A DNA stretch of 64,000 nucleotides from an uncultured Veillonellaceae bacterium (GTDB lineage Bacteria; Bacillota; Negativicutes; UBA1444): contig CAZFSM010000014.1 in NCBI GenBank assembly GCA_964521625.1, forward strand, positions 27,061 through 91,060. The letters are read 5' to 3'. The notes under the pieces are model-generated. The model saw only the letters and a program-made list of their open reading frames with translations, had not been told where the DNA came from and did not search any database. Made by a program: the position numbers and the translations under genes. This document shows positions 6,457 through 27,716 of this stretch, piece after piece (within the stretch, counting starts at the first letter, position 1; each line of letters opens with the position of its first letter).

Positions 6457-6477
6457 CCAGACACCTGCCTTACTGTC

Positions 6478-8565: not shown

Positions 8566-8979
8566 ATGAAAAAACTGATGTCCGGTTTGCTTGCCGCGAG
8601 CGTTTTGTTGATTGTTCTAAGCTCTTTCCAGATTGCTTCGGCGGCTCCATTCAAAGTAATGGGCAGCGGTGAAGATTCCTATCTGGCAGATTCCCGTGGC
8701 ATGACCCTATACATTTATTTAAAAGATAGTCCGGATAAGGCAACCTGTGTTGGCGACTGCGTGAAGCGCTGGCCGATCTTCTATACCGAAAAGGTCATGG
8801 TTCCGGCAGGAATGGACGCGAAAGAATTCGGAGTCATCACCCATCCGAGCGGTGTCAAGCAGAATACGTTCCGTGGCTGGCCTCTGTATTACTTTGCCAT
8901 GGACAAGATGGCCGGCGATACGACTGGGCAGGGCAGAAGCAATGTCTGGTACATCGTACGAAACCCCGGCTCCATGTAG
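8566..8979 (+). CDS. Secreted protein with two copies of the COG4315 / Lipoprotein_15-type repeat (function unknown)
   Basis: Signal peptide MKKLMSGLLAASVLLIVLSSFQIASA. Two Y-x-[FY]-x-x-D type repeats (TLYIYLKDSPDK; PLYYFAMDKMAGD). A GAGGAGG RBS precedes the ATG at 8566. Confidence 0.7.
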   Translation: MKKLMSGLLAASVLLIVLSSFQIASAAPFKVMGSGEDSYLADSRGMTLYIYLKDSPDKATCVGDCVKRWPIFYTEKVMVPAGMDAKEFGVITHPSGVKQNTFRGWPLYYFAMDKMAGDTTGQGRSNVWYIVRNPGSM

Positions 8980-9005
8980 GCTATAGTCAGTTCGTCAGAC
9001 AATTC

Positions 9006-9050
9006 GGCCCTTGGCATATCCGGTAGGAAATGCCAAGGGCCTTCGTTTGT
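9006..9050. terminator. Bidirectional intrinsic terminator between convergent genes
   Basis: 12-bp perfect stem ggcccttggcat / atgccaagggcc, followed by ttcgtttgt. Confidence 0.6.
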
Positions 9051-9081
9051 CGGGCCGTAATGAGTTGCAATACTCATTTGG

Positions 9082-11581: not shown

Positions 11582-12546
11582 AGTGTTTTTACCCTCGGAT
11601 CTACAATCGGATAGAGCAGTTCCAGCAAAAAATTGACCGCCAGCACCGTGACTGACGCCAGTAACAAAATCCCCTGCAATAACGGATAATCACGGGCGGC
11701 GAGCGCCCGATGCAGCAGCGAGCCCATGCCCGGGTAGCCAAAGATGACTTCAATCATTAAAATCCCGGCAAACAAATGGGACAAGTGCAATCCCGCCGAG
11801 GTAACGGCAGGCAACAGCACACTCCGGCCCAGATGCCGGTAACGGATGGAAGCTTCCGCACAGCCCTTGGCCCGGGCTGTACGGAGAAAAGGCGCCCGCA
11901 ACAGGCCGGCGGCCGAATTGCGGCAAAGCAGATACATGGTGGTCATGCGCGCCAACACCAACGAAGCAAGCGGCAGCGCTAAATGGCGCAGCACGTCTTG
12001 CCCCCAGGCCCAGCCGGCCTGCCCGCCATATACGGTAACCGCGCCACCTAGCGGAAACAGCGACCAGACCACAGCAAAGCCCAATAACAAAAGCGCCCCG
12101 ACAAAAAAGTCCGGCACGCCGCCGATCAGCATGAGGCTGGCAAACAGCCCCTTGTCCCAGCGGCTGCCTTTGCGCGCCCCACTCTCCAGCCCCAGTACAA
12201 AACCACCCACCGTCGAAAGCAAGAGTGAAGCTCCCGCCAGCAGGATCGTCCAGGGCAAAAATCCCGCCATGACCTTTGTAACAGGAGCATTAAAAAAGTA
12301 GGACCAACCCAGGTCGGCCCGTAATAACGAACCCAGATAGGCGAAAAACTGAGTGTCCCAGCTTTGATCAAGTGCAAAGCGCCGATAGATTTCGGATTTC
12401 ATCTCCGCTGTCATCGACAGTGCGGCTTCCTCGCCATAGATCGCCAGAAACGGGTCTCCCGGCAACAGACGCGGCAAAACAAACCCCAGCGAACAGAGGA
12501 TAAAAAAAGCGATGGCATAATCCGTAAGCAACCGGGAAATTCGCAT
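11554..12546 (-). CDS. ABC importer permease (NikB/DppB-like)
   Basis: 330 aa. N-terminal LPRLLPGDP motif and an EAA loop (FLRTARAKGCAEASIRYRHLGRSVLLP). Confidence 0.9.
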   Translation of the reverse strand: MRISRLLTDYAIAFFILCSLGFVLPRLLPGDPFLAIYGEEAALSMTAEMKSEIYRRFALDQSWDTQFFAYLGSLLRADLGWSYFFNAPVTKVMAGFLPWTILLAGASLLLSTVGGFVLGLESGARKGSRWDKGLFASLMLIGGVPDFFVGALLLLGFAVVWSLFPLGGAVTVYGGQAGWAWGQDVLRHLALPLASLVLARMTTMYLLCRNSAAGLLRAPFLRTARAKGCAEASIRYRHLGRSVLLPAVTSAGLHLSHLFAGILMIEVIFGYPGMGSLLHRALAARDYPLLQGILLLASVTVLAVNFLLELLYPIVDPRVKTLCISNTEKS

Positions 12547-12565
12547 TTTCTCCTCCCGTTAGAAC

Positions 12566-13180
12566 TTACCAGCCGCGCTGATACGGCTCGGCGCAGGCCA
12601 GGCAGACTTTTTTGCCATCGACCAGACGCAGTCGGGGTTCCATCGTGACTTCACCGCAAGCTTCGCAGGCAAAAGAATCAAAAATCCGGGCCCGTTCCGG
12701 CACAACAAAGGTTGGTGCTTTGATCGAAAAAAGTTCTTCATCGGACGCTGCCAGCATCTGGCGCATCCGCTCGGTTTTTTGCGCTTCAAACTGAGCTTTT
12801 TCATCAGCGGTCGCAGCGCCGGTCATTACTTTTTTGCGCAGCGCCATCCCTTCCGGCGAACTGGCGCCTGCCTGTCCTTTAAAAACAAGCCGGACCGCTT
12901 TGCCGGTATCACGACGGAAAATTGTAAACGCCTGTTTGCCCTGATCGCGGAAGATCAAATTCCCTTTGCCGATCGAACAGCCGAGCATCGATTGAATCGC
13001 ATCTACGCCGCAGGCATCATTTTCAACGACCGCCACCAGTTCCTCGTCCTTGTCGCGGTTAAGTTCCAACTCTCTAACCGCCAGTTTCGCCGCCCGATAG
13101 CCGATGATCAGGCCAGGGCAAACATGTCCGTGAAAAGTAATGACCGGTTTTAAATCCTCTGGAATCGTGAACGTTGCCAT
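12566..13180 (-). CDS. FmdE/FwdE-family protein with a C-terminal Cys4 zinc ribbon
   Basis: FHGHVCPG motif near the N-terminus. C-terminal CEACGE...CLAC. It sits between the SBP and permease genes of the ABC operon. Confidence 0.85.
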   Translation of the reverse strand: MATFTIPEDLKPVITFHGHVCPGLIIGYRAAKLAVRELELNRDKDEELVAVVENDACGVDAIQSMLGCSIGKGNLIFRDQGKQAFTIFRRDTGKAVRLVFKGQAGASSPEGMALRKKVMTGAATADEKAQFEAQKTERMRQMLAASDEELFSIKAPTFVVPERARIFDSFACEACGEVTMEPRLRLVDGKKVCLACAEPYQRGW

Positions 13181-13210
13181 GCAATATGTGCCTCCTTCAA
13201 TTTACGCTAA

Positions 13211-14818
13211 TTATTTCCCCTGCACAAATATCAGCTTGTTTTGCGGAATCGGCGCGCCATTGCCGACTCCCTGGAATGTATACCACAACCGCACTTTATC
13301 GTTGAAAGCCCAATAGGATCGCGGATAATATAACGGTAAAAACGGCAAATCACGCGCCGCCAGTTCCTGTACGCGATAAACCCAGTTGCGGCGAAGCGTC
13401 GGGTCCATCTCTGAGCGGCTCTTGTCCACCGCCTCCTGCCAATCCGCATCGCCTTGCCAGCGGGCGCCAAAAAAGATTTCCCGCGTCAGCAAACGACTGA
13501 ATGCTTCGGGGTCGCAGCCAAGCCCGCCGCTGCCGGTTAATGCCAACTGAAATTGCCAGGAATTCTGCCGGCTATCCACGGTTTTCGGGTCCATAACCCG
13601 CAAGTCAACCACGATACCCTCTTTAGCCAGCTTGTTCTTGATAAATTCGCCTTGCCGTTCGGAAGGCGCGCCAGTCATCGCCAAGCCACCCGAACCAACG
13701 AGCAGTTCCAGTTTTAATGGTTGGCCCGCTTTGACCCATTGTCCGTTTTGTTTAGTATAGCCGGCTTGCGAGAGCAACTTCGCCGCCTGAACCGGATCAT
13801 AGGGATATTTCCCCACGACTTGTGGATTGGTCCACGGGCTGCCGGGCGGCGCCAAGCCGGGACTGCCAGCAAGGCCATGCCCGCGCAGGGTTGTTTTTAC
13901 CAATTCCGGGCGGTCGATCAAATAGGCCAGCGCCTGACGCACTTCAACTTGATTTAATGGCGCCTGTCGATGATTCAATAGCAGGATGGCCACCCAGTCC
14001 CCTTCTTGCGAAATCAGCCTATAACCTTCTTTTTTCAGCGGTTCAGCCATATCCGGCGGAACCTGCGCCGCATCTACTTCGCCGCGCTTCAGCGCAGCTA
14101 CCGACATGTCCCAGCTCAACTTGACAAACCGCAGTTCCTTCACTCTGGCCTCCCCCAGATAGTGCCCCGGCACGGCGATGAACCGATAAGTCCCATGTTC
14201 TTTGCTATATTCCGCCAAACGATAAGGCCCGCTGCCCACAACGGCCGCCGGGCCGGTAAACCCTTTGGGGTCGGCTACGTCTTTCCAGATATGTTCGGGC
14301 AAAATCGGCACCGACGCAGCGATATAATCCAAAAACGGCGCGAAGGGTTCTGTCAAAAATATCTTTACTGTTGAGTCATCGACCGCCTCCGCGCGAATCA
14401 CCTGCGGCGTCGCGATATATGGGTACGGATGCTTTTTGTAGTATGCGAAGGAAAACACCACATCGCTGGCAGTAAACGCTACGCCATCATGCCACTTTGC
14501 ATCCTTTTGCAGCTTCATGCGCCAAGCTTTTTCGCCCGGTAGCCATTCCCAGGTTTTCGCCAAACCGGGCCCGTAGCCGGTTTCATTTTTCCAGACCAGC
14601 GTGTCAAAAACCAACGTCATGCGGATATAGCCAGGCCCGCGCAGATAATGGTTATAAGGATTGGGCAGTCCCCAATCGCCTGTCGTATCGGCAATCGTCA
14701 TAAGCCCGGGATCAGATTTTGCTGACGGCGCAGCAACTTTTTGATCTGACGTTCCGCCACAGCCTGCCGATAGCAACAACAGCGCCACCAGCAAACAGAC
14801 GGTCAGACAATTCATCAT
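13211..14818 (-). CDS. ABC transporter substrate-binding lipoprotein, family 5 (nickel/peptide/opine type)
   Basis: Lipobox LLLSAGCGG and family-5 SBP architecture (about 530 aa; ...KWHDGVAFTASDVVFSF...). The start is placed at the MMNCL ATG (14818); the ORF is open up to 14842. Confidence 0.85.
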   Translation of the reverse strand: MMNCLTVCLLVALLLLSAGCGGTSDQKVAAPSAKSDPGLMTIADTTGDWGLPNPYNHYLRGPGYIRMTLVFDTLVWKNETGYGPGLAKTWEWLPGEKAWRMKLQKDAKWHDGVAFTASDVVFSFAYYKKHPYPYIATPQVIRAEAVDDSTVKIFLTEPFAPFLDYIAASVPILPEHIWKDVADPKGFTGPAAVVGSGPYRLAEYSKEHGTYRFIAVPGHYLGEARVKELRFVKLSWDMSVAALKRGEVDAAQVPPDMAEPLKKEGYRLISQEGDWVAILLLNHRQAPLNQVEVRQALAYLIDRPELVKTTLRGHGLAGSPGLAPPGSPWTNPQVVGKYPYDPVQAAKLLSQAGYTKQNGQWVKAGQPLKLELLVGSGGLAMTGAPSERQGEFIKNKLAKEGIVVDLRVMDPKTVDSRQNSWQFQLALTGSGGLGCDPEAFSRLLTREIFFGARWQGDADWQEAVDKSRSEMDPTLRRNWVYRVQELAARDLPFLPLYYPRSYWAFNDKVRLWYTFQGVGNGAPIPQNKLIFVQGK

Positions 14819-14860
14819 TTCTTTTCCAATTCGCACTTGCAAAACATTGTCCCCCTTGCC

Positions 14861-14921
14861 TGGAAAATAGAAAAAGCCATGCAGAAATCGGTCCCCAGTG
14901 AGACCGATAAACCTTCATGGC
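14861..14921 (-). terminator. Intrinsic-terminator-like hairpin + U-run inside the leader of the ABC operon (attenuator, or terminator of the upstream operon)
   Basis: On the minus strand: ggccatg-aaggttt-ATCGGTC-tcactgggg-GACCGAT-ttctg-catggc, followed by tttttctatttt. It lies between the predicted promoter (14983-15011) and the SBP start. Confidence 0.5.
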
Positions 14922-14982
14922 CTATCTGTTGTTTCTCTGTTCTCTGCTTCAGCAGAGTTTGGCGGTGCATCCCGCCATATAA

Positions 14983-15011
14983 ATAATATAGGGAGACAGC
15001 GGCTAAGTCAA
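14983..15011 (-). promoter_or_regulatory. Sigma-70-type promoter for the SBP-FmdE-permease-ATPase operon
   Basis: Minus strand TTGACT (15011-15006), a 17-nt spacer, then TATTAT (14988-14983). Confidence 0.5.
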
Positions 15012-15056
15012 GGAATCTTGCTTACAAGCCCGATCATTACGGTTCAAAACATATCA

Positions 15057-16496
15057 TTACATGCCGATTTTTCTCCACACCAAAATCCGATAGGAGCCGA
15101 CTACTTCGCCGCTATCGAGTTGCAGCGGCGCTTCCATCGCCACGACATACTTGGGACTGGCCGCCACGGCAACGCAAGGTCCGGCCGCCGGTAGCCAATC
15201 GACCAGTTCCAGTTCCGGCGTCGACAATAGCGCAACACCATGAATGCTGGCATCTTTTGTCCGGATATTGCGCCCGACAGCCACTGCCAATTCCGGTCCG
15301 ACGGTTTTAATTTCCTCAATCATGCCGCCCAACTTGCGCCGTTTCAGCAAGTTGCCTTCCCGATCAAACAAAAACACGCTGTTGCTCTGGGGATGCTCCA
15401 CCGGAGTCGGCAGTTGCCAATTGGCCCGGTTATAAGTATTGCCGGTGGAAAAGATGGCATAGGGGCCGATATGTTGGGTGTGCAAACCGGTTGCATTGAC
15501 AAAAACCCCCTGAATTCGCTGCGGGGCGCTGAGCACCCGCGTCCAGAGCAACTTGCCGCCAGCATCGACAAAAAAAGCTCGTCCGTCTGCCGAGACGCCG
15601 CTCAAAACTTTGCCGTCCGTTGACCACTGGGGGCCAAACCGCATGTTGGTCCGTTCGTACGGTTCAACGGTCGCAGTATGGAGACTCCAGCGATATTGAC
15701 CTGTTTTGGTATCAAAAAGGTAAATATTATCCTTATATTTCCGATCTGGACCGGGTGTATAATCCGATGTGCTAAACACCAGATTATTGCCAGCCGGGTC
15801 GATGTCGCACCAGCTAACCCAGACATCCAGGTTGTGATCGCGGGGAAATAGTTCGACCCCGCCTTCGGCGTTAATTTTATAGATCCGGGCAAAATATTCA
15901 GTCTGACCGTTAGGGGACCTGATCGACCGCAGGGCAACAGCATAGGCGTTGCCGCTGTCATCCATCGTAATGGACATAATTCCGGGAAACGTCTTTTGCC
16001 GAATGTCTACGCCTAACTCTTCGACGCTATTGCGTCGCCACTTTTCACTGCCGCTGTTCGCATCCAGGCAAAACACGGCGCCCTGCTGACTATTTTCGCC
16101 GATCAATATCCGCTGCCCGTCCGGCGTATATTCCAGCGCACTGATTTTGCCCATGCCGATTTTGCGGCTCCATATTTGCGCGCCGTCGATACTGAACACC
16201 ATGACTTCACCGGTTTCCGTGCCAACGGCGATCCGGTCGCCCGCCGGTGACAGCCTGACCAGCCCCGGTGTCGACCCCATCTGGCGAAAGCCGCGAATTT
16301 CGACTTTGCCGAGTGGAATCTCGGCAACTTTTTCGTAGCGCCCCAACTGGCCCAACTGTTGCAATGGCGCTTTCCGGCCTGATTCCCGGCTGAGTTCAGG
16401 GAAAATATGCAGCGCCAGAAACCCTAAACTAATCAGGAATACTGAAAATAGCAAAATGAGCCGGATATTTTTGATGTTCATCCCGTTCACAGCCAC
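15057..16496 (-). CDS. Membrane-anchored extracytoplasmic beta-propeller protein (WD40/PQQ-like repeats), function unknown
   Basis: N-terminal TM anchor IRLILLFSVFLISLGFLALHIF. Blade-like repeats recur (VMVFSIDGAQIWSRK, AVFCLDANSGSEKWRR, IYLFDTKTGQYRWSL, AFFVDAGGKLLWTR, VFLFDREGNLLKRR). The start overlaps the ecfT stop by 10 nt. Confidence 0.65.
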   Translation of the reverse strand: MAVNGMNIKNIRLILLFSVFLISLGFLALHIFPELSRESGRKAPLQQLGQLGRYEKVAEIPLGKVEIRGFRQMGSTPGLVRLSPAGDRIAVGTETGEVMVFSIDGAQIWSRKIGMGKISALEYTPDGQRILIGENSQQGAVFCLDANSGSEKWRRNSVEELGVDIRQKTFPGIMSITMDDSGNAYAVALRSIRSPNGQTEYFARIYKINAEGGVELFPRDHNLDVWVSWCDIDPAGNNLVFSTSDYTPGPDRKYKDNIYLFDTKTGQYRWSLHTATVEPYERTNMRFGPQWSTDGKVLSGVSADGRAFFVDAGGKLLWTRVLSAPQRIQGVFVNATGLHTQHIGPYAIFSTGNTYNRANWQLPTPVEHPQSNSVFLFDREGNLLKRRKLGGMIEEIKTVGPELAVAVGRNIRTKDASIHGVALLSTPELELVDWLPAAGPCVAVAASPKYVVAMEAPLQLDSGEVVGSYRILVWRKIGM

Positions 16497-17374
16497 ACCG
16501 CCATAAAATCATAGACTCCGCGTAAGCGGGGAAAATAGGCAACCCCGTTGTGTTGCAATAAAAACAAAGTTTTCAGCACCGCCCCAGTAAAAATTGCGGC
16601 AAAAATCCCCGCACAGGCAAGTCGCTGCACCAGCGGCCAATTTGGCAACGTCGACTGGCGATTGCCGCGACCAAAACCCCTGCTCTCCACCGACAACGCC
16701 AGTGTTGCCGCCCGTCGCAACGAACGGGCCAGAATGGGAAACAAAACATAAAATGCCGTATTAACCCAGCGCACCGGCGACACACTGCGCATTGGCTCAA
16801 AACCGCGCAACCGCTGCGCCGTAAACACGATGGCCGTTTCTTCGAATATGACCGGTAAAAAGCGCAGACTGGTGATCAGCATAAAGGCAATCTCAAACGG
16901 CATCCGCCAATGCAAAAAGCACTGCAACAGCTGACGCGGATCGGTGGTCCAGCAGATGAGCAGGCCACAGGATAACATGATGCCGGAGCGCAGCGCCTGC
17001 ACTGCCCCATGCTCCAGCCCTTCCCTGTAAATGAAAATTCCGCCCGTCCATTCGCCGATCCACGGCGCGGACGGCGATATCAGGCAGGCGATCATGGTCC
17101 GCGGTTCCTGGTTATAAAATAAGGCCTGACTGACCATCGTCCCCCAGATTCCCACGAGCAGAAATATCGTCAGCACCTGCCAGCGCTCCACAGAAGACCG
17201 GGCCAGGAAATGCAATCCCAATGAAGCCAAAAATAAAATAAAGAGCGGCCTCGGCCCGTCAAGGCCGACGGCAAACAGCATGACCGCAGTCAAAAGCACC
17301 AGTTTGGTTCGCACATCCAGCCGGTGAATCGGCGTATCAGCCGGCGTGGCTTGCCAAATCTGTCTGTTGTACAT
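16487..17374 (-). CDS. ecfT: ECF transporter transmembrane (T) component, EcfT/CbiQ family
   Basis: 295 aa and polytopic. It has the two coupling-helix Arg motifs (FTAQRLRGF and LALSVESRGFG). It overlaps the ATPase gene. Confidence 0.85.
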   Translation of the reverse strand: MYNRQIWQATPADTPIHRLDVRTKLVLLTAVMLFAVGLDGPRPLFILFLASLGLHFLARSSVERWQVLTIFLLVGIWGTMVSQALFYNQEPRTMIACLISPSAPWIGEWTGGIFIYREGLEHGAVQALRSGIMLSCGLLICWTTDPRQLLQCFLHWRMPFEIAFMLITSLRFLPVIFEETAIVFTAQRLRGFEPMRSVSPVRWVNTAFYVLFPILARSLRRAATLALSVESRGFGRGNRQSTLPNWPLVQRLACAGIFAAIFTGAVLKTLFLLQHNGVAYFPRLRGVYDFMAVWL

Positions 17375-19028
17375 GCCGGACTACCTCCTCTACCCCGAGT
17401 GCGCAACCACCATATAGTCGCCGGGACAATAGCAGCGAAGTCGGCGGACGCAGTCCCGCTGTGTTTAGCATTGCATCCTGCGAAAACACCTCGCGCGGCG
17501 AAGCGTCGGCGACAACCCGTCCGCCTGTCATGACAATAACCCGCTCCGCATAACGGGCAGCGACTTCGGTATCGTGGGTGCAGAGAATGACTGTGCCGCC
17601 GGTTTGCGTGAACTCTTGCAGCAACTCGACAATATCGTCGATATGCCCCAAATCCTGGCCGGTCGTCGGCTCATCCAGCAGCATAATCTCCGGCTGGCAA
17701 GCCAGTAAGGAGGCGATCGCCACCCGCACCCGCTGCCCTTGACTGAGCGCCAGCGGAAAGCGGTCTTCCAGCCCGCCGAGGCCAATCCGTTCCAATAGCG
17801 GTCGCCAGCTGGCCAGGTTTTTGCCCCGTCCAAGCCCATGTTGCAAGCCAAACGAAATCTCCTGCTCGACTGTTGAATTAAACAACATCAGGTCAGGATT
17901 CTGCATGACCATCCCCACTCTGCGGTCCAGCGATTTCACGGTTTGTCCCAGCAGTTTTACCTGCCCTTTCTGGGTTTTCTGCAAGCCGCAGATATGGTTC
18001 AGCAAGGTTGATTTGCCTGCGCCATTGTTGCCCATCAACACGACAAATTGACCGCGGGGGATTGTCAGGTTGATCCCGTCCAGGACGTTGCCTTTTTTTT
18101 GATCATACTGAAATTCAAGATCTTGCACCTCGATAACCGGCGCAGCAGGTTCCGCGAGGCATTGTTGAGCAATTGGCCGGGGCTGCGCGCTGCAACCCGG
18201 ATACGCTTGGCTTATTTTCGCAAAGGCCGCATCCACTGTCGCGCTCTCCGAGGCCAGGCCCAGTCGGTGGCAAATATGAACCGTCTGCGGAATCCGCAGG
18301 CCCTGCCGCAAAAAAACATCCGGCTGGCAAAAAGCTTCCTGTTGCGTCCCTTGCCAGGCAATGCGCCCTTGTTCCATCACCATGACCTGCTTGCACATCG
18401 GCATGACTTCATGCAGCCTGTGTTCCACCACAATAATCGTGATTCCCAGCTCGGCATTCAGCTTTTGCAATACCTGCAGCAGTTCCATCGCGCCGCGCGG
18501 ATCCATTTGACTGATCGGCTCGTCCAGTGCCAGCACCTGCGGTCGTATCGCCAGTACAGCAGCCAGCGCCAACCGTTGGCGTTCACCGCCGGACAATGCA
18601 TGAACGCTGCCTTGTTCGCGACCGGCCAATCCCACCCATGCCAGGGTTTCCGCTACGCGCCGCCGGATTTCAGCCGGGTCCATCCCCATGTTTTCCAAAG
18701 CAAAGCCCACTTCGTCGGCAATTGAGGTCGAAAAAATCTGATCATCCGGGTTCTGAAACATTAGTCCGACTGTCCGGCTCAAATCTGCGACTGAAGATTG
18801 CAGCGAATCGACGCCGTTCACCCGGATACTGCCCTGCAGCGCGCCGCTGATTTCGTGGGGGATCAGGCCGTTAAACGCTTTGAGCAAGGTGCTTTTGCCA
18901 CAACCGGTCGGCCCGGTGCAAAGAATAAAATCGCCTGCATTGATTTGCCAATTAATATCGATCAGGCTGGGAGTAGCGCTATTTTGATAGGTGAACGAAA
19001 CATTGCGGCATTCTACGATCGTGCTCAT
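17337..19028 (-). CDS. Fused double ATPase of an ECF-type transporter (EcfA-EcfA')
   Basis: Walker A GPTGCGKST and GNNGAGKST; signatures LSGGERQRLALAAVL and LSQGQRVRVAIASLL; CbiO/EcfA-like Q-helix regions. Confidence 0.9.
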   Translation of the reverse strand: MSTIVECRNVSFTYQNSATPSLIDINWQINAGDFILCTGPTGCGKSTLLKAFNGLIPHEISGALQGSIRVNGVDSLQSSVADLSRTVGLMFQNPDDQIFSTSIADEVGFALENMGMDPAEIRRRVAETLAWVGLAGREQGSVHALSGGERQRLALAAVLAIRPQVLALDEPISQMDPRGAMELLQVLQKLNAELGITIIVVEHRLHEVMPMCKQVMVMEQGRIAWQGTQQEAFCQPDVFLRQGLRIPQTVHICHRLGLASESATVDAAFAKISQAYPGCSAQPRPIAQQCLAEPAAPVIEVQDLEFQYDQKKGNVLDGINLTIPRGQFVVLMGNNGAGKSTLLNHICGLQKTQKGQVKLLGQTVKSLDRRVGMVMQNPDLMLFNSTVEQEISFGLQHGLGRGKNLASWRPLLERIGLGGLEDRFPLALSQGQRVRVAIASLLACQPEIMLLDEPTTGQDLGHIDDIVELLQEFTQTGGTVILCTHDTEVAARYAERVIVMTGGRVVADASPREVFSQDAMLNTAGLRPPTSLLLSRRLYGGCALGVEEVVRHVQQTDLASHAG

Positions 19029-19031
19029 GGC

Positions 19032-20723
19032 TCAATCACTCCCTACGCCGGAAAGACGGGCGCCCAGCAATGCGCCGCACGCCGCGCCGATCATCGTGTA
19101 TAAGAACCCGTTGACAGCCATGACCATAAAGATATACCAATCGGCAAAAAACAGTCGATACAACACTGCCATCCCCTGCATCGTAACAAACGTCGCTATG
19201 GTATCGGCCAAAGCGCAAGCCAGCGCCAATGCGGCCATTCTGCGCCAGGAAAACGGCTCCGGCTCATTGGATCGGGGCGTAGCTGTCGTAAAGCCGAAAC
19301 CGGCTAACGCCAGTTCCAGTAAAAATGCATTGACCCCATAGGAAAGAAACACCAGCGGCGACATGTGACCAAACGCAAGCATGCCGAGCAGCAGGCGAAT
19401 CGCCGCCATTAAACTCACCACGCCGTGCAGCGGGATCAGTGTCACCAGCGCGCCGGTCAGCATATACAACATGATGCCACTAAACATACCGCTGATCAGA
19501 AAACTAAACGGCCCCAAAAAGATGTGCAAAAAATCGTTCAGCAAGGTCGACGGCACATTGACGACCGCGAACGCGCAAGTGCCAAATAAGGCAATCGTGA
19601 TCAGTCGCCGCGTCTTCATGCCGGCCAATACCTGCGGCATTTTTCGGCTGATCAGCAGCAGAAACGCCAGCAGCATCGCCACGCCGGCTCCCAGCGTCAG
19701 CATGCCGCGCATATTTTTTTTGATGACCGTCAGCGGCAGTTCCTGCGACCAACTCTGCGTTTCGCCGTCCTCTACGGTCACCCGCAGCAGATAGCTGCCT
19801 TCCGTCAACTGGGTTTCATCGGCGTAAATCGGCAACAATAAGCGTTGACGCGGCTCACCGCTCAGCGCAACAAATGCGGTCAGTCGCTCCTGACCGGCAG
19901 CCATGGCCCCGGCGCCATCATGTTCCGAGTTGCTGCCAGGCGTATACAGGCCGGCGACTCTGCGCCGAATATTCTTGTCAATCAATTCGGCCTCCACCAT
20001 CAGCAGTTTTTGCTGTCCGGCAGGATTGCTAAAGTCCAGACCCATATGGGATACCGGGTGAATCGCTTCAATCTCCAAATTGGCCGTGCCTTTGCCGCGC
20101 AACACATTTTTATAGTAGTCGAGCGAACGGTCACGCAGAACCAATGTATTGGCATTTTGTTTTTCGTCGCGCAAGCCGTCACGGTCAAGTGGCAATACCA
20201 CCCGCTCCAGCACCGGTTTGGTCTTGGCCGAGACTCCGTCCGTGCGCGGCGCCACCTTTACCCGCACTTCCCGGCTGATTTCTCCGGCTGTAAGACGGGC
20301 CAAATAGACGCCTGCCGCAGCTTGCTCATCGACCGACACCGACAACAAATCAAACCACTGCCCATAGCCGCCGGCTAACTCCATCTCCCGCTGCATCAGC
20401 TGATTTGCCGAGCTGGCGCTTTGCAAGACGGTCCAGTGCTCCGGTTTGCCTTCCACCTGAAATCCCTGCGGCAGTTCCAGCCGCACGGTAACCCGCTGCG
20501 GCTCCGGTCCCGCGTTTTCAATATTAAACATGGCATGAATCCGCTGCCCCGGTGCAACTGTCATTTGTCTGCCTGCCAACGAATAAGGAAGCTCCAGCGA
20601 AAGCTGAAGCCCTGCAGCAGCAAAAGTATGCGCCGGCAATAGCAGGCATATCGCTAGTGCCGCCAGCAATAACCGGCGCACTATTACTAAAGTCGAACCC
20701 ATTGATTCATCCCTTTCACTCAT
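19032..20723 (-). CDS. Signal peptide + extracytoplasmic domain of about 330 aa (beta-sandwich-like) + C-terminal multi-TM module occupying the ECF S-component position
   Basis: Signal LLLAALAICLLLPAHTFAAAG. CARDB/NEW3-like strand pattern (RIHAMFNIENAGPEPQRVTVRLELPQGFQV; GSYLLRVTVEDGETQSW). Then about 7-8 hydrophobic helices over the last 230 aa. It is located between tonB and the ECF ATPase with overlapping or adjacent stops and starts. No family was recognised with confidence. Confidence 0.6.
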   Translation of the reverse strand: MSERDESMGSTLVIVRRLLLAALAICLLLPAHTFAAAGLQLSLELPYSLAGRQMTVAPGQRIHAMFNIENAGPEPQRVTVRLELPQGFQVEGKPEHWTVLQSASSANQLMQREMELAGGYGQWFDLLSVSVDEQAAAGVYLARLTAGEISREVRVKVAPRTDGVSAKTKPVLERVVLPLDRDGLRDEKQNANTLVLRDRSLDYYKNVLRGKGTANLEIEAIHPVSHMGLDFSNPAGQQKLLMVEAELIDKNIRRRVAGLYTPGSNSEHDGAGAMAAGQERLTAFVALSGEPRQRLLLPIYADETQLTEGSYLLRVTVEDGETQSWSQELPLTVIKKNMRGMLTLGAGVAMLLAFLLLISRKMPQVLAGMKTRRLITIALFGTCAFAVVNVPSTLLNDFLHIFLGPFSFLISGMFSGIMLYMLTGALVTLIPLHGVVSLMAAIRLLLGMLAFGHMSPLVFLSYGVNAFLLELALAGFGFTTATPRSNEPEPFSWRRMAALALACALADTIATFVTMQGMAVLYRLFFADWYIFMVMAVNGFLYTMIGAACGALLGARLSGVGSD

Positions 20724-21391
20724 TACCGCAAATCAAAGACAACTGGCACAGTTGCCCAGGCCGCAACCGGACTGCCATTTTTCAGCGCTGGGCTGAATCG
20801 CCATGACCGAACGGCCCGCTGCGCCGTCTGGTCCAGTTCGGCGTAGCCCGAGCCGGCGACGATGCGTACATCTTCAACCCGTCCGTCTGTATTGACCAAA
20901 ATCTGAAGCTTCACAGTGCCTTCCCAGCCTTTAGCCCTTGCATTCTCAGGATAGTCCGGTCTGCCGCCGTCGACGATGCGCGGCCCGCGAGTCGTTCCTG
21001 TTCCTGTACCTGGGCCTGGCCCTACGCCGGTTCCTTTGCCGTTGCCATGTCCGCCGCCGGTTCCTCCGCCGCTACCTCCCATACTCGAACCACCTGAGAC
21101 TGCGGCAACCGCTTGCGGGGCAACCTGATCGGAAAAACCACTCGCTGGCGGCGGCTGTGACTGCGGCTGGTGCTTGACAGGATCGGGGGCGCGCTCCGGT
21201 TGTCCCCCGCCACCGGCAGGACCGTCCAGCGGCGCAAACAATTCCGCCATGCTCACTTCTACATAAATCGGCTGACTCGATTGCATGACGTCCCAGTGCC
21301 AAAACAAACTAATCCCTGCAAACAGCCCGACATGCAGCAGCAGCGAACCGGCTATTGCGGCTCGCCACCGTTTGTTACCCCGCATTATCAA
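20723..21391 (-). CDS. tonB: TonB energy transducer
   Basis: N-terminal anchor (AAIAGSLLLHVGLFAG), a Pro/Gly-rich linker, and a TonB C-terminal domain (PDYPENARAKGWEGTVKLQILVNTDGRVEDVRIVAGSG...AVRSWRFSPA). Confidence 0.85.
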   Translation of the reverse strand: MIMRGNKRWRAAIAGSLLLHVGLFAGISLFWHWDVMQSSQPIYVEVSMAELFAPLDGPAGGGGQPERAPDPVKHQPQSQPPPASGFSDQVAPQAVAAVSGGSSMGGSGGGTGGGHGNGKGTGVGPGPGTGTGTTRGPRIVDGGRPDYPENARAKGWEGTVKLQILVNTDGRVEDVRIVAGSGYAELDQTAQRAVRSWRFSPALKNGSPVAAWATVPVVFDLR

Positions 21392-21789
21392 CCCTTAGGG
21401 TCGACGGCCAGTGATATTTTACTGGCGCCGGCTCGTTTCACGGCATCGATCACTTCTACGACCTTGCCGTGCTGCGAATCTTTATCCGCCTTAATAAAGA
21501 TCAGCGGGCTGTTATGCGCTTTGGTCGCAACGGTTGCTGCCAGGTCGCCGAGCGATATCACTTTATCGCCCAAGGCAATCTGCCCCTGCCGGTTCACCAA
21601 GACGGTGATGTGTTCCGGCGGTTGCGGCGTCCCGCTGCTTGCCTGCGGCGGCGTAATATTGAACCCTGGATGGGCAACCAGAAAGGTTGTAGACATCATG
21701 AAGAAAATCAGCAGCAACATCATGACATCGACCATCGGCGTCATATCAACATGAACTGGCAGATGGTTCGAAGAACGCCTGGTTCGCAT
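21388..21789 (-). CDS. exbD: Biopolymer transport protein ExbD/TolR
   Basis: 133 aa. VDMTPMVDVMMLLLIFFM motif plus a periplasmic domain. Overlaps tonB by 4 nt. Confidence 0.9.
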   Translation of the reverse strand: MRTRRSSNHLPVHVDMTPMVDVMMLLLIFFMMSTTFLVAHPGFNITPPQASSGTPQPPEHITVLVNRQGQIALGDKVISLGDLAATVATKAHNSPLIFIKADKDSQHGKVVEVIDAVKRAGASKISLAVDPKG

Positions 21790-21806
21790 GCGAATCCCTC
21801 CTTCGT

Positions 21807-22400
21807 TTATACGCCGGCCCGGCGAACAATTTCGCCGACGCAGCCTTCGGTCCAGTGCAATAAACGCTCCACCCGGTTGCGAAAATGATTGTTGGCAATG
21901 ATGCAGGGAATGGCTACAAGCAATCCACCGGCTGTATTGTATAACGCTTCGGAAATACCGGCGGCAAGCATCTGCGGATTGCCGAGGCCAGTCATCGAAG
22001 CCGCTTGAAAGGTTTTGATCATTCCCAGCACCGTCCCCAAAAGACCGAGTAGCGGCGCTACGGTCGCAGCGGTCGTCAATATATACAAGTTGCTTTCAAA
22101 CAGTGGGGTTTCGGCCCGAACAGCATCGTCGACTGCATTTTGACGAGCATCGCACTCACAAGCCGGGATCATCGCTGCTGCAGCCCACATCTTGCCGTAA
22201 ACGCTCCGCCTCACCGACTCTTCCGCAAAGGTTGCCGCAACATTGGCGCTCGGATCGGTCAACAGCGCCCTGATCCTGGCCGACTGCGAATCGGCCGATC
22301 GGTAATATAGCCAACGTTCGATGATGACTGCGCAAGCCACCAGCGAACAGGCCATAATCGTGATGATGACCCAACCGCCTTTTTCAAGGATATCCAGCAT
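21807..22400 (-). CDS. exbB: MotA/TolQ/ExbB proton-channel protein
   Basis: 197 aa with 3 TM segments. Conserved C-terminal half (APLLGLLGTVLGMIKTF...ISEALYNTAGGLLVAIP). Confidence 0.9.
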   Translation of the reverse strand: MLDILEKGGWVIITIMACSLVACAVIIERWLYYRSADSQSARIRALLTDPSANVAATFAEESVRRSVYGKMWAAAAMIPACECDARQNAVDDAVRAETPLFESNLYILTTAATVAPLLGLLGTVLGMIKTFQAASMTGLGNPQMLAAGISEALYNTAGGLLVAIPCIIANNHFRNRVERLLHWTEGCVGEIVRRAGV

Positions 22401-22413
22401 GTGTAAGCCCTCC

Positions 22414-24330
22414 CTAAAAACTCTGGCTCAGTTTCAAGTAAAATGCCCGTTCTGGTTGTAAATAGTGCGACGTGCCGTTTGACACCACATCCCGGCGGTC
22501 CAGCAGATTCTCCACCCGCAGTTGAAGCTGTGTATTCTTGGCCAGCTGATACTGCAGCACCAAATTGATCGGCAATGTCGGCTCCAATCCATCCTTGCGG
22601 CCTGCCAGATAATTTGCCGTCAAACTGCTCTGCCACTTACCCGATCGATATGTCAAGCCGCCGTTCAATTGAAACTTGGCGAAGGTTGGCGTCCAGTCGC
22701 CGCCGTCACGACGCTCTTCCGGGTTATTGATGTTTGCTCCCAGATTGAACATCCAGCGTTTGTTTACACGGCGGTCGTAGGTGACTTCCAGACCAGTATT
22801 GCGAAAATCCGAATTATAAGGGCTATAAACATTGGTTGACACTTGTTCCCATTGGATATAGTTTGTAAATTCCATTCGATATAAGGCGATTTTCAACGAA
22901 TCAGCAGTACCGATTTTTTTCCAACCCACCTCGTAAGTATAGCCATATTCCGGTTTCAAATTGGGGTTGGCTGTTTTACGCCAGGTCGATCCATACATAT
23001 CCGATAAATTGGGCATGCGAAAAGCTCTCCCGACGTTGAGATACAACGACTGTTCCTTATTCAGGCTATGCAGCAACTGTAGCTGGGGATTGAATTCATT
23101 GTAATCATTCGCGCCGGCCTGTTGCCGGATGAATTCCTGCCGCGCCCCTACAATCAGATTAGTTTTTGCCGAAAGCGGATGGTTGACCTGGGCGAAAACA
23201 GAATAAAAATCTCGCTTCTTGAGCGACAAATAGGCTGATGAAGCATTTGTCTGGGCATAAAAACTTTCATCAGCACTGATAGCGTCGTTTTGCCACGACA
23301 CTCCAGCCAGGTACTGGCCAAATTTTGTCTGCCAGCTGGCCTGGCTGTCCAGCCCCAAGGTGCCAAAATAGGTGGTATTATCACCGGATCGAACGCCAGC
23401 AGACGTATATTTGCGATACTGCCTGGCCGACCAGTTGCCGTATGCTTTGGTTAGCCAACTTCCATGCTTGATCTGCAAGGAAACTGAATTTTTGACATCT
23501 TTTTGCGCAATCCGCTCATCCAGTGTATTGCCGATTTCCTTCATCCGTTCCACATTGAATTCATCAGAATCATATTGGTGAGTCAACGTCATCGCATCAT
23601 TAATTGCCCAGGCCCAGCGCAAAAAATTGCGTTCTTCGCCACGAAACGCCGTATATTTTCGATTCAGGCCGTTGCTTGACCAAGGCTCGCTAATCGCCCC
23701 CATATCGCCCACCTTTTCATGGCTGGCGGTTATAGAAAATTTGTCGGCCTGTAATGAAAGGTTTTGCCGATTAGTGCCAAAACTGCCTGTCTCCGCTTCA
23801 ACACTATTTTTCACCTTTTTCTTCGTGACAATATTGATGACCCCTCCCATCGCCGAAGAACCGTACAACGTCGAAGAAGCCCCTTTGATTATTTCCACCT
23901 TCTCAATATTGTCGGGAGGAATATGCTCCAGTGCATAATAACCGGAAAGATTGGTCGGGATGCCATCCAGCAAAATCACCGTGCCGCGATCCATCCCTCT
24001 GATGACGATTTTTGCCGTCATCGACGAATATAGATGGCCCATCGCCCCATATCCGTCATACGTCAGTCCGGTGGCAAACTTCAGCGCTTCCAGCAAATTT
24101 GACGCCCCAGTTTCTTTTATCTGCTCGCCAGTCAGTACTTGAACCGACGCCGCCGTTTTCAAGTCCTTCGACTCCCGCCGCATAGCCGTCACCACCACAG
24201 GATCGAAGTTATATTCCTGCTTCTCCTCTGCACTTGCCAGTCCCGGTATCCCCGCACAGAGAGCCCCTACGATTACGCCAGCCATCGTTCGCCTCGCCCA
24301 GTTACGAGCATATTTTTTGCTCAGTTTCAT
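22414..24330 (-). CDS. TonB-dependent outer-membrane receptor, BtuB-like by riboswitch context
   Basis: Signal peptide; TonB box FDPVVVTA; plug domain (LTGEQIKETGASNLLEALKF...VIRGM); a beta-barrel of about 22 strands ending in a terminal Phe (LKLSQSF). The ATG at 24330 has an AGGGGAG RBS. A cobalamin riboswitch lies upstream. Confidence 0.9.
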   Translation of the reverse strand: MKLSKKYARNWARRTMAGVIVGALCAGIPGLASAEEKQEYNFDPVVVTAMRRESKDLKTAASVQVLTGEQIKETGASNLLEALKFATGLTYDGYGAMGHLYSSMTAKIVIRGMDRGTVILLDGIPTNLSGYYALEHIPPDNIEKVEIIKGASSTLYGSSAMGGVINIVTKKKVKNSVEAETGSFGTNRQNLSLQADKFSITASHEKVGDMGAISEPWSSNGLNRKYTAFRGEERNFLRWAWAINDAMTLTHQYDSDEFNVERMKEIGNTLDERIAQKDVKNSVSLQIKHGSWLTKAYGNWSARQYRKYTSAGVRSGDNTTYFGTLGLDSQASWQTKFGQYLAGVSWQNDAISADESFYAQTNASSAYLSLKKRDFYSVFAQVNHPLSAKTNLIVGARQEFIRQQAGANDYNEFNPQLQLLHSLNKEQSLYLNVGRAFRMPNLSDMYGSTWRKTANPNLKPEYGYTYEVGWKKIGTADSLKIALYRMEFTNYIQWEQVSTNVYSPYNSDFRNTGLEVTYDRRVNKRWMFNLGANINNPEERRDGGDWTPTFAKFQLNGGLTYRSGKWQSSLTANYLAGRKDGLEPTLPINLVLQYQLAKNTQLQLRVENLLDRRDVVSNGTSHYLQPERAFYLKLSQSF

Positions 24331-24483
24331 TTGCCACACTCCCCTAACCAAGTTTTTATACTGCCATCAGTGCAACCGCTCCTGTTGTCGGAACGGATTA
24401 TTTTTATCTGGAGGCTCCCCTGCAAAAGAGCCTCCGGCTAATGAATCCACGCCAAAAGCTAAAATGGCGTGAAATCCGGGGAA

Positions 24484-24522
24484 CACAAAAAAAGAATAGC
24501 CCCCTGGAATGGAAGCTATTCT
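24484..24522 (-). terminator. Second terminator-like hairpin + U-run in the long leader
   Basis: Minus strand agaatagc-(14 nt)-gctattct, followed by tttttttg. It lies between the riboswitch terminator and the receptor start codon. Confidence 0.4.
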
Positions 24523-24540
24523 GGACAGCCGGCAACTTTT

Positions 24541-24572
24541 TGATAAAAAATCCCGGCAAAAAAATTGCCGGG
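24541..24572 (-). terminator. Riboswitch expression-platform intrinsic terminator
   Basis: Minus strand cccggcaa-ttttt-ttgccggg, followed by attttttat. It is immediately 3' of the cobalamin aptamer. Confidence 0.7.
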
Positions 24573-24629
24573 AAGAAGTTCAACACAGGAGCTGTGCAAA
24601 AATCCCCTCCCCATCGCGCGTGGGTAAAA

Positions 24630-24805
24630 ACGGTGATTGTCGAACAGGCAGTTCTCCTGGCTCTGGATCATAGCTCGCCCAAACCTTCCCAAGATTTTCA
24701 TCCCAGTGGTATAAAATGGGTTTGCTCCCCAATACAGTGGCGGGACCGCGCCGGCATTACACCGGACTTCCCTATTAAGCCCTTGCGGGCACCTATCCCG
24801 GTATG
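24630..24805 (-). promoter_or_regulatory. Cobalamin (B12) riboswitch aptamer
   Basis: The minus strand reads ggtgcccgcaagggcttaatagggaagtccggtgtaatgccggcgcggtcccgccactgta...ccactgg...gggaagg...AGCCAGGAGAACTGCC. This gives the conserved AATAGGGAA / GGTG-AA-CC / GCCACTG core and a B12 box (24662-24647). Confidence 0.9.
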
Positions 24806-24837
24806 AAATTGTCAAACGAACTCGGATTACGGTTTGA

Positions 24838-24866
24838 ATATTACCACAGAGATTTTAGCGTGTCAA
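24838..24866 (-). promoter_or_regulatory. Sigma-70-type promoter driving the riboswitch-led operon
   Basis: Minus strand TTGACA (24866-24861), a 17-nt spacer, then TAATAT (24843-24838). It lies about 30 nt upstream of the aptamer. Confidence 0.55.
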
Positions 24867-24889: not shown

Positions 24890-25524
24890 TTACTGTTTCA
24901 AGCTCTGCAGCCACTTGGCGATCTCATCCTGTGAATTTTTTACGTCTTTCCCCCATAGGGCAAGTCCCTCAAGTATGGTCGCCTGTGACGCCAGTTTGGC
25001 AATATCGTTGGCGCTGCGGCCCAGTCCGCTTCCCGCATGGGTGATAAACGGCACAACAGTCTTACCGGACAAATCATGCTCCGACAAAAAAGTCATGACT
25101 GGCGGTGCGATGGTGTTCCTCCAGTTTGGGGAACCGACAAAAACAATATCATATTCTTTGATGTTGGTCACTTTTGCTTTGATCGGCGGCTTAAACCCAG
25201 ACTCCAACTCTTGTTTTACCTGTTTTGTCACACGTTATGTTCAAAAGGATAGGGGGTAACAGTCTGGATCTCAAAAATATCGCCGCCCATGATCTTCTGG
25301 ATTTACTCGGCCAGTTCACGGGTATTGCCGGAACGCGAAAAATAGGTCACTAATACTTTCTTGGTTTTAATCGGCGCTTGCGCCGCTTCAGCTTTTGGGG
25401 TCTGGGTTGGGGCTGGGCTGGCTTTTTCATTCTTCGTTTCCGCCTTGGTGCTGTTGCCGCCGCAAGCGGTGAGTAAAACGGCCATCAACAATGTCATGGC
25501 CAGGACCAAAACCTTCTTCACCAT
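24890..25524 (-). pseudogene. Lipoprotein-anchored flavodoxin-family gene, inactivated by a nonsense codon plus a frameshift
   Basis: The 5' part (MVKKVLVLAM..LTACGG..VLVTYFSRSGNTRELAE) stops at an in-frame TAA (25302-25300). Homology then continues in frame (IQKIMGGDIFEIQTVTPYPFEHNV). It shifts frame at a GTGTGA site (about 25226-25233) into the 113-aa ORF (TKQVKQELESG...FVGSPNW...PFITHAGSGLG). Confidence 0.8.
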
Positions 25525-26536: not shown

Positions 26537-27716
26537 TTGAAAAAAGAGTTGTCACGGATGGATCTTCCCGTGTATGTTGAAGGTGCTAGCCAAAACAACA
26601 CGAAGGAGCTGAACAAGATGCTGGACGCCGAGGCGGATCAACTCACCAATGCCGGCAAGTATGAACGTACAGAAGGAAGAAAAGACACCTGCGCCGGCCA
26701 TTATCAGCGCAAACTCACCACCAAGGCAGGTGAAGTGACCTTGAACGTTCCCAAACTTCGCCATCTTCCTTTTGAGACCGCCATTATCGAACGCTACAAA
26801 CGGCGGGAAAGCAGTATTGAAGAAGCCCTTATCGAGATGTACCTGGCGGGAGTTTCTGTTCGCCGGATTGAAGATATTACCGAAGTCCTTTGGGGTAGTA
26901 AAGTTTCTGCCGGAACCATCAGCGAGATGAACAAGAAAGTCTATGGTCACATCGAAGAATGGCGAAATCGCGAGCTCAAATCAACCTACCCTTTATGTCT
27001 ACTTTGGCGGTATCTATCTAAAGCGCTGTTGGGGCGGTTCATACGACAATGTAGCCATATTGGTGGCCTTGGCAGTAGATGAAGATGGCTATCGGGAAAT
27101 CATCGGTTGCGCAGAAGGCGGTCGGGAAGATAAGGAAAGCTGGTTGAACTTCCTACGCTGTTTGAAAGAACGAGGTCGCTCCGGCATGAAACTCAGTGTT
27201 GCAGATCGCTGCCTGGGCTTTGTTGAAGCCCTCGGAGAAGTATTTCCAGACTCGAAGTTTCAGCGCTGCGTCGTTCATTTCTACCGAAACAGCTTTTCGG
27301 TAACCCCTCTTTCTAAGAGCAAGGAAGTGGTCGCCATGCTCAAAGCGATTCACGCGCAGGAAGATCTGGAGAGTGCGCGCGAGAAATCAAAGTTGGTCAT
27401 AGAAAAACTCAAAGGAATGAAACTCCCTGAAGCAGCCAGTCGACTGGAAAAAGGAATTGAGGACACCATAGCATACATGAACTTCCCCCGGGAACACTGG
27501 GGCAAGATACGGACCAACAATGGATTGGAGAGAATCATGCGAGAAATCCGCCGCAGAACGAGGGTGGTGGGAAGTTTTCCAGACGGGAAATCGGCTTTGA
27601 AGCTGGTAGGAGCCAGGCTTCGTCATATTACGACAACCAGTTGGGGGACGAAGCGACATTTGAATATGGCACTGCTCCAGGAAAAACAGGCCGATGGCGT
27701 ATCCGAAGCTATCTGA
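26537..27716 (+). pseudogene. IS256/Mutator-family transposase, frameshifted near 26990
   Basis: Frame 1: ...AGKYERTEGRKD..YQRKLTTKAGEVTLNVPKLR...LIEMYLAGVSVRRIEDIT...WRNRELKSTYP. Frame 2 continues LYVYFGGIYLKRCWGGSYDNVAILVALAVDEDGYREIIG...FQRCVVHFYRN...IRTNNGLERIMREIRRRTRVVGSFPD. Confidence 0.85.

Follow-up and report, generated by a model that had tools for sequence, protein, structure and literature searches.

How might a bacterium with two membranes bring vitamin B12 into the cell with an operon that holds no gene for BtuF, BtuC or BtuD? The question is raised by a locus in a 64,000-nucleotide (64-kb) stretch of DNA from an uncultured Veillonellaceae bacterium of the Negativicutes (GenBank assembly GCA_964521625.1, contig CAZFSM010000014.1, positions 27,061 to 91,060 of the forward strand), which we call the window and whose positions serve as coordinates unless another locus is named. 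Here a cobalamin riboswitch is followed by eight minus-strand genes for a TonB-dependent receptor (TBDR), ExbB, ExbD, TonB, a 563-residue membrane protein, a fused EcfA-EcfA' ATPase, EcfT and an anchored beta-propeller. We suggest, at a probability of roughly 0.6, that the operon, repressed by cobalamin, lets a diderm Firmicute take up corrinoids (cofactors of the B12 type or precursors of these) through its outer and inner membranes, and that it does so with a group I energy-coupling factor (ECF) importer that has an unusual S component. The original prediction, made from the sequence without database searches, had proposed such a hybrid of TonB-dependent and ECF-type corrinoid transport; it is supported by the linkage to a riboswitch in 54 of 79 loci and by the conservation of a core gene set, with transport and substrate as the parts that we infer.

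The leader and the operon

The leader comprises the following features.

24838 to 24866, minus strand: sigma-70-type promoter, TTGACA, 17 nt, TG-TAATAT (consensus scan, 10 of 12 matches, extended -10)
24630 to 24811, minus strand: cobalamin riboswitch aptamer (Rfam RF00174)
24541 to 24611, minus strand: expression platform (terminator scan, minimum-energy fold and alignment of relatives)
24573 to 24551, minus strand: intrinsic terminator 1, a 9-bp stem (6 G-C pairs) followed by a T-run
24493 to 24522, minus strand: second terminator-like hairpin with a T-run, 12-bp stem

The aptamer first placed at 24805-24630 passes a covariance-model search, with Rfam boundaries of 24811-24630: it matches RF00174 over the full length of the model (positions 1-189) at 110.7 bits against a gathering threshold of 31.5 (E 7e-27), and is the sole Rfam match across the 64 kb. 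The promoter predicted at 24866-24838 was recovered by the scan, a result that carries little weight by itself (20 sites found, 11.7 expected), and both of its hexamers are invariant in an alignment of the window with four relatives. The terminator expected at 24572-24541 was found as a stem at 24573-24551 with its T-run, starting 57 nt downstream of the aptamer. A candidate anti-terminator, in which GGGGAGGGG pairs with CUUCUUCCC, overlaps this stem and T-run; a G-rich helix competing with the terminator stem appears in the minimum-energy fold, and the sequence of the expression platform is nearly invariant in relatives. The second hairpin shows compensatory changes, in that both sides of its stem vary among relatives and the pairing is kept, and its place downstream of the first suggests tandem attenuation. 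Promoter hexamers, aptamer, competing helix and both terminators are kept in the four relatives, and the folding of the leader surpasses that of shuffled sequences (z -3.0). From these sequence features the leader is predicted to include an expression platform able to switch expression.

The genes behind it are as follows.

22414 to 24351, minus strand: open reading frame (ORF) of the TBDR, probable ATG at 24330 (Plug PF07715 and TonB_dep_Rec_b-barrel PF00593)
21807 to 22400, minus strand: exbB (MotA_ExbB PF01618, E 4.5e-29), 13-nt gap after the TBDR
21388 to 21789, minus strand: exbD (PF02472, E 7.5e-31), 17-nt gap after exbB
20723 to 21391, minus strand: tonB (TonB_C PF03544, E 2e-27), 4-nt overlap with exbD
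19032 to 20723, minus strand: gene of the 563-residue protein, candidate S component, 1-nt overlap with tonB
17337 to 19028, minus strand: fused EcfA-EcfA' ATPase, 563 residues (two ABC_tran domains), 3-nt gap after the preceding gene
16487 to 17374, minus strand: ecfT (CbiQ PF02361, E 9.6e-30), 38-nt overlap with the ATPase gene
15057 to 16496, minus strand: propeller gene, 479 residues (PQQ_2), 10-nt overlap with ecfT

Gaps between these genes do not exceed 17 nt and overlaps span 1 to 38 nt, so that ORF coordinates and family matches reproduce the eight packed, co-directional genes and the overlapping or near-contiguous junctions described before; the reported absence of BtuF-, BtuC- or BtuD-like genes likewise holds for the operon. 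The receptor is of BtuB-like size (638 residues), its ATG at 24330 is preceded by a GGGGAG ribosome-binding site, and a TonB-box-like DPVVVTA can be read in the translation past the signal peptide; a BtuB-like architecture of plug plus 22-strand barrel with a TonB box is predicted, the barrel being known from domain match and length. It aligns over its full length with TIGR01779 (TonB-B12), below the cut-off (124.3 against 599.7 bits), and E. coli BtuB is its top relative of solved structure by a small margin. The ATPase passes the NCBIfam models ECF_ATPase_1 (TIGR04520; 419.9 bits, cut-off 315) and ECF_ATPase_2 (TIGR04521; 416.1 bits, cut-off 330). EcfT reaches 104.3 bits with PF02361 (cut-off 25), misses the TIGR02454 equivalog cut-off (74.9 against 111.8 bits) and carries in its translation the two Arg-Gly coupling motifs QRLRG and ESRGF. 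The motor is a canonical group I (dedicated) ECF module, and the gene of the 563-residue protein is the operon's sole polytopic membrane gene besides that of EcfT.

Conservation of the core and its linkage to B12

Loci from species-representative genomes, 79 in number and 78 of them with a homologue of the 563-residue protein, were compared by tblastn (the comparison covered the best 80 of 198 genome matches; taxon labels are doubtful for some metagenome bins). The conserved unit consists of the gene of the 563-residue protein, the fused ATPase, EcfT and the propeller, and it is found throughout the Negativicutes (Sporomusa, Anaerospora, Phascolarctobacterium, Acidaminococcales) and in scattered other lineages. 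A propeller gene adjoins the 563-residue homologue in at least 68 of the 78 loci, Poribacteria included; EcfAA' is adjacent in 43 and EcfT in 41, and they adjoin it in every non-poribacterial locus with enough flanking sequence. A TBDR is adjacent in only 21 of the 78. The full receptor-ExbB-ExbD-TonB set stands before the core, as in the window, in the closest relatives; other loci have the receptor alone before the core or ExbBD-TonB after it, and Sporomusa has no TonB genes at the core and a separately riboswitch-controlled receptor a few kilobases away. Of the recurrence asked of the whole locus, therefore, the four-gene core and the riboswitch bear it out; the eight-gene order, with its variable TonB genes, is not conserved as a whole.

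According to a covariance model made from aptamers that Rfam had verified, the 54 loci already mentioned, which belong to Negativicutes and Poribacteria, have a same-strand cobalamin riboswitch upstream, and Rfam verified the riboswitch in 24 sampled loci. It lies directly before the gene of the 563-residue protein in Sporomusa and Anaerospora and before the TBDR in others, and the window's own subfamily always stands behind one where the sequence reaches far enough. In about 15 of the 25 loci without a riboswitch the sequence available upstream is too short, or the gene upstream continues past the end of the contig. The poribacterial riboswitches were confirmed by Rfam at 93-114 bits, and the gene between them and the 563-residue homologue encodes a secreted, BtuG-like propeller with a dockerin tail, which matches chain B of PDB 8BLW (phmmer E 1.1e-5), that is, BtuG1 in the BtuB1-BtuG1 complex of Bacteroides thetaiotaomicron (PMC10404256). 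Homologues of this BtuG-like gene occur in 33 loci, 31 of them labelled Poribacteria.

The poribacterial loci (L045-L079; for example L079, 7970-13291) have a three-gene unit behind the cobalamin riboswitch, made up of the BtuG-like propeller, a protein of the 563-residue type (634 residues, lipoprotein-like signal) and a partner propeller that has an additional domain at its N terminus. Genes for EcfA, EcfT or a TBDR are absent within 10 kb of the unit.

A second kind of neighbour is the chelatase set CobN-ChlD-ChlI, which flanks most of the riboswitch-free relatives with ample upstream sequence, and CobN-type genes also neighbour several riboswitch-bearing loci. Chelatase genes of this class flank the module of propeller, 563-residue protein and ECF motor in L026, L037, L041, L044, L047, L048 and L060, and also in L005, L012, L016-L018, L024, L025, L027, L029 and L032. 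In L026, CbiZ, an adenosylcobinamide amidohydrolase of corrinoid salvage, is encoded just upstream (6312-7436). These linkages suggest a wider gene set for the salvage and remodelling of corrinoids or tetrapyrroles. A search of the window found no CobN, ChlD, ChlI, CbiZ or BtuG-like gene, and the neighbourhoods examined held nothing specific to haem or siderophore uptake. The corrinoid substrate had been said to stand or fall by whether orthologous clusters consistently lack the riboswitch and lie beside haem or siderophore genes; they do not, and the recurrent neighbours are the BtuG-like gene, CobN-ChlD-ChlI and, in one locus, CbiZ.

Several loci vary on this plan. In L019 (1548-13167) two paralogous sets of the 563-residue protein and propeller stand side by side, with 42% and 29% identity to the window protein, which hints at several substrate specificities, like the multiple BtuB copies of Bacteroides. 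L032, from Phascolarctobacterium faecium (6687-21273), has an extra single ABC ATPase before the 563-residue homologue, an exporter-type ABC half-transporter and an ABC-2 pair after the propeller, and ExbB-ExbD-TonB under a cobalamin riboswitch of their own (18989-19158). Modules 30-45% identical to those of Negativicutes, some with TBDRs, occur in L025, L037, L038 and L048 under the labels Patescibacteria, Actinomycetes or Acholeplasmataceae, and the assignment of these metagenome bins may be wrong. In L007 the propeller gene is closely followed by a c-di-GMP-I riboswitch (16161-16252, 73.7 bits).

A candidate S component with a periplasmic domain

No Pfam or NCBIfam family matches the 563-residue protein. 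In its AlphaFold2 model (66 homologues, pLDDT 85.7) a signal peptide is followed by two beta-sandwich domains (about residues 39-334), a linker helix (338-368) and a helical core (371-559). DSSP gives five helical stretches in this core, the first of which (371-429) is too long for a single membrane pass and is therefore read as two helices; in our reading of the model it is broken at the invariant Gly404-Pro405, which would make a core of six. On this model the sandwiches would be periplasmic, the linker helix would return the chain to the cytoplasm, and the six-helix core would have both ends inside. A six-helix core with both ends cytoplasmic is the topology expected of ECF S components.

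Sequence comparison points the same way. The YkoE family, PF09819, is the commonest membrane-family match (5 of 66 and 9 of 78 members, in overlapping sets), always below threshold, the best among relatives having E 2.2e-4 and about 18 bits against a cut-off of 25.2; two members have a sub-threshold match to PF09605. When the membrane-domain profile was aligned with the YkoE-family profile by hhalign, P was 2e-4 with 47% probability over 108 columns, in an alignment colinear from helix 1 that covers the first four helices; a YkoE seed sequence was verified as PDB 5EDL, YkoE as a single sequence gave P 0.0039, and three unrelated membrane proteins, as single-sequence controls, gave P 0.53, 0.037 and 0.051. 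An AXXXA motif in helix 1 of S components is tied to docking on EcfT (PMC11109136). Among 26 diverse members of the present family, column 13 of helix 1 is Ala, Ser or Thr in nearly all and column 17 in about 22; the window protein has A378 and T382, and strict Ala-Ala is not general. The sequence evidence for an S component is thus weak but consistent, and we reason that the protein is quite probably an ECF S component fused to a periplasmic domain. The original prediction of a non-canonical capture subunit in the ECF module fits the place of its gene in the motor operon and this weak YkoE likeness. Of the two extra extracytoplasmic proteins that had been counted, this one is most likely the S component itself and no extra; the propeller remains one.

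The family is large and nameless. About 100 clusters in a word-indexed database are all unnamed or 'hypothetical', and an exhaustive profile search of 1.84 billion representatives matched the membrane domain in at least 438 clusters at 50% identity; the members listed mostly have 500-700 residues with the membrane domain at the C terminus. Stand-alone S components were sought by exhaustive search, and all 150 matches listed are the family's own membrane domain. To our knowledge, ECF transporters are defined by lacking an extracytoplasmic substrate-binding protein or domain; the departures from that rule here are the roughly 300 periplasmic residues fused to the core in the model and the fixed extracytoplasmic propeller partner.

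That partner, in an AlphaFold2 model with pLDDT 93.1, has an N-terminal membrane helix (8-31) followed by 32 strands, which make eight blades; its fold and sequence matches are generic (PQQ, BamB, WD40). The propellers of the window and of Poribacteria are full-length homologues (E 3e-29). The propeller loop T351-N372 is nearly invariant, and the second sandwich domain of the 563-residue protein is also strongly conserved. Homology of the propeller with BtuG was considered and rejected, BtuG being absent from the top 50 fold matches and from the best 60 of 114 sequence matches; hhalign of the window propeller with the poribacterial BtuG-like protein gave P 0.035.

Weighing the corrinoid uptake model

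We suggest that when the cofactor is plentiful the riboswitch would favour the terminators and transcription would stop in the leader, and that when it is scarce all eight genes would be read through. The BtuB-like receptor, energised by its own ExbB-ExbD-TonB, would then bring corrinoid into the periplasm, where the sandwich domains and the anchored propeller might capture what the receptor releases and pass it on to the six-helix membrane core, which EcfAA'-EcfT would power to carry it into the cell. The riboswitch and receptor steps follow from well-established families. We infer the corrinoid substrate, the role as S component and the hand-off, and the last of these, a hypothesis based on location, strict co-occurrence and strong conservation, is held tentatively. 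Equally tentative is the broader notion of a new class of ECF importer for the two-membrane envelope, in which the S component has a periplasmic 'antenna' and a propeller as binding protein and the pair may, as in Poribacteria, also work without the motor.

A number of observations weigh against corrinoid uptake by such an importer. The receptor is far under the BtuB equivalog cut-offs (for NF007926, 95.5 against 836 bits) and is barely nearer to BtuB than to haem or siderophore receptors; since it misses these cut-offs and its lead towards BtuB is marginal, its B12 specificity rests on context. About 10 loci with ample upstream sequence have no riboswitch, and Rfam confirmed the absence in nine loci, namely seven of those ten together with L048 and L067. 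The likeness to S components lies below every curated threshold; profile searches of solved structures with the full-length protein and with the membrane domain found no S component even at E 10, and the membrane domain and divergent members, scanned against NCBIfam also at E 10, matched nothing, although a single database record does label a partial homologue an 'MptD family S component'. All Foldseek matches of the whole 563-residue model are to tandem Ig-like domains (WxLIP, RbmA, C-terminal domains of transglutaminase), which swamp the search, so that it says nothing of the membrane core. The propeller has no specific likeness to BtuG in fold, sequence or hhalign comparison. In about 30 poribacterial loci no ECF genes lie within 10 kb of the paired genes for the 563-residue protein and propeller, and an ECF motor may therefore not be strictly necessary for the pair. 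Finally, B12 riboswitches also control cobalt transporters.

This last point opens the way to an unlikely alternative, in which the ECF module, like CbiMNQO, imports cobalt (or nickel) ions for B12 synthesis and the TBDR carries the metal or a chelate. Cobalt uptake genes are commonly under B12 riboswitches, the T component matches the 'cobalt' CbiQ models, CobN-ChlD-ChlI are frequent neighbours, and the window has, just downstream, a Nik/Opp-type ABC system that includes FmdE. Yet the membrane domain has no match of CbiM or NikM type, its only consistent weak matches being to YkoE, which handles an organic substrate; the poribacterial pair shares its operon with a BtuG-like corrinoid binder; the corrinoid salvage enzyme CbiZ is adjacent in L026; and a periplasmic domain of 300 residues together with a propeller is hard to rationalise for an ion.

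It is improbable, too, that the substrate is another tetrapyrrole, either a metal-free corrinoid precursor or a porphyrin such as haem, with a CobN-type chelatase loading or stripping the metal and the riboswitch merely coupling uptake to cofactor status. The chelatases beside most riboswitch-free and several riboswitch-bearing relatives would suit it, for CobN-ChlD-ChlI is a tetrapyrrole chelatase class that does not exclude porphyrins and so leaves room for other tetrapyrroles in the distant subfamily, and the receptor resembles PhuR and ShuA, which are haem receptors, about as closely as it does BtuB. However, CobN, ChlD, ChlI and CbiZ are absent from the 64 kb of the window, whose subfamily is always preceded by a riboswitch where sequence suffices, and a BtuG-like gene accompanies the pair in Poribacteria; a corrinoid precursor as substrate would, moreover, still fit the uptake system proposed here.

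Nor is it probable that the 563-residue protein and propeller have a role outside transport (as scaffold, sensor or BamB-like assembly factor), that the motor serves S components encoded elsewhere and that the close packing reflects co-regulation only: the sub-threshold likeness, the occurrence of the S-component fold also in sensor kinases and MreD (PMC11109136), the poribacterial pair without ECF genes within 10 kb and the propeller's best family match, the BamB-type PQQ_2, would allow it, but the pair is contiguous with EcfAA' and EcfT in every flanked non-poribacterial locus and no other candidate S gene is present, the gene of the 563-residue protein overlaps tonB and nearly abuts the ATPase gene, family scans and the model show no kinase or other output domain, and small residues occupy positions of helix 1 that are bulky in sensors and MreD (PMC11109136). 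Each of the three, be it cobalt, another tetrapyrrole or a role outside transport, fits fewer observations than corrinoid uptake by an ECF importer.

Comparison with known systems

ECF import of B12, BtuM beside btuB and B12-binding propellers (BtuG) are already known. ECF-CbrT of Lactobacillus delbrueckii is an ECF-type vitamin B12 importer of solved structure (PMC5997447), and dedicated CbrTUV systems have been predicted (PMC6593275). The module described here would likewise be ATP driven, as ECF-CbrT is in its import of cobalamin and cobinamide by an EcfA-A'-T motor and a membrane S component, and like the predicted CbrTUV systems it has its own dedicated motor genes. The host of CbrT is monoderm, whereas here a TBDR precedes the genes and the 563-residue candidate S component has two sandwich domains and a fixed propeller. 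CbrT itself is small and is not known to have an extracytoplasmic domain or a partner protein. As the structure of ECF-CbrT is solved, CbrT should be among the chains searched, and the membrane-domain profile matched no S component.

The original prediction treated ECF-type B12 uptake as a trait of monoderms, which ECF-CbrT bears out in part, but a diderm precedent exists in BtuM, which transports B12 in Gram-negative bacteria as a solitary protein resembling an S component and whose gene co-localises with btuB (PMC6072759). The parallel is close, for BtuM too is an inner-membrane B12 protein of S-component type in diderms that stands beside a BtuB-type receptor and replaces BtuCDF. The differences are that BtuM is a protein of about 22 kDa with no periplasmic domain and no need of an ECF module, and that the cysteine with which it ligates cobalt is not matched across the present family, C503 being conserved only in the Negativicutes subfamily. 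The poribacterial members, which lack nearby ECF genes, may by analogy work solitarily like BtuM.

YkoEDC, a group I ECF importer of the thiamine precursor HMP, provides the sole established S-component family with a detectable, if weak, likeness. YkoD is a fused double ATPase, and ykoEDC is a dedicated riboswitch-controlled operon. YkoE differs in its substrate and riboswitch, in its size (199 residues) and in having no extracytoplasmic domain.

With BtuB-BtuFCD of E. coli and with the BtuB-BtuG(-BtuH) systems of Bacteroides (PMC10404256, PMC6143338) the operon shares the logic of a TBDR, extracytoplasmic binders, an ATP-driven importer and a cobalamin riboswitch, and in Bacteroides, too, a beta-propeller accompanies the transporter. 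In contrast, BtuFCD is absent here and the inner-membrane step is of ECF type; the proposed periplasmic capture would be the analogue of what BtuF does for BtuCD. The propeller has 8 blades, resembles PQQ and BamB proteins and is anchored in the inner membrane, whereas BtuG is a 7-bladed surface lipoprotein (PMC10404256).

Neighbouring genes

Downstream of the operon, 9082-14842 (minus strand) encodes a Nik/Opp-type ABC importer consisting of SBP_bac_5, two permeases and a fused oligo_HPY ATPase, with a gene for FmdE plus a zinc finger in mid-cluster. We rejected this SBP_bac_5/FmdE/permease/ATPase cluster as a conserved part of the operon: a 215-nt gap and a promoter-like site (15011-14983) separate the two, and in the closest relative the cluster lies about 3 kb apart, being elsewhere or absent in others. 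Read-through from the operon may occur in this genome. FmdE or the whole cluster recurs in variable position near L002, L003, L013, L014, L018 and L044, and no riboswitch was seen directly before the cluster.

On the other side, an ORF of 113 residues (24890-25231, minus strand) adjoins the promoter upstream. Its match to the Flavodoxin_4 profile is confined to positions 61-153, and the ORF is perhaps truncated or its start wrongly set. Overlapping ORFs of 181 and 257 residues at 26537-27716 (plus strand) resemble a transposase split by a frameshift.

Significance

A literature search, beyond whose reach most subscription journals lie, found no account of an S component that bears a large periplasmic domain and is obligately partnered by a propeller, in keeping with the view that the gene combination is undescribed, and neither the 563-residue protein nor the propeller is named in the sources consulted. 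The inner-membrane carriers of B12 or its precursors are still open for many bacteria, as has been said for human gut species (PMC6593275, PMC6072759). The present family ranges over much of the Negativicutes, sponge-associated Poribacteria and some Syntrophobacterales and Deferribacteres, for which it is a candidate inner-membrane B12 carrier; among the Negativicutes concerned, Phascolarctobacterium faecium is a human gut species (PMC7568257) and Sporomusa ovata produces phenolyl cobamides (PMC8123684). If corrinoids are bound by the periplasmic domain and propeller, the ECF class would have members with extracytoplasmic capture, and the two would join BtuG and BtuH as comparable binders of B12 with high affinity. 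A broader pathway of salvage and remodelling is suggested by how often the family is linked with CobN-type chelatases and CbiZ, and the family, if our reading is right, would be a genome marker for predicting corrinoid salvage.

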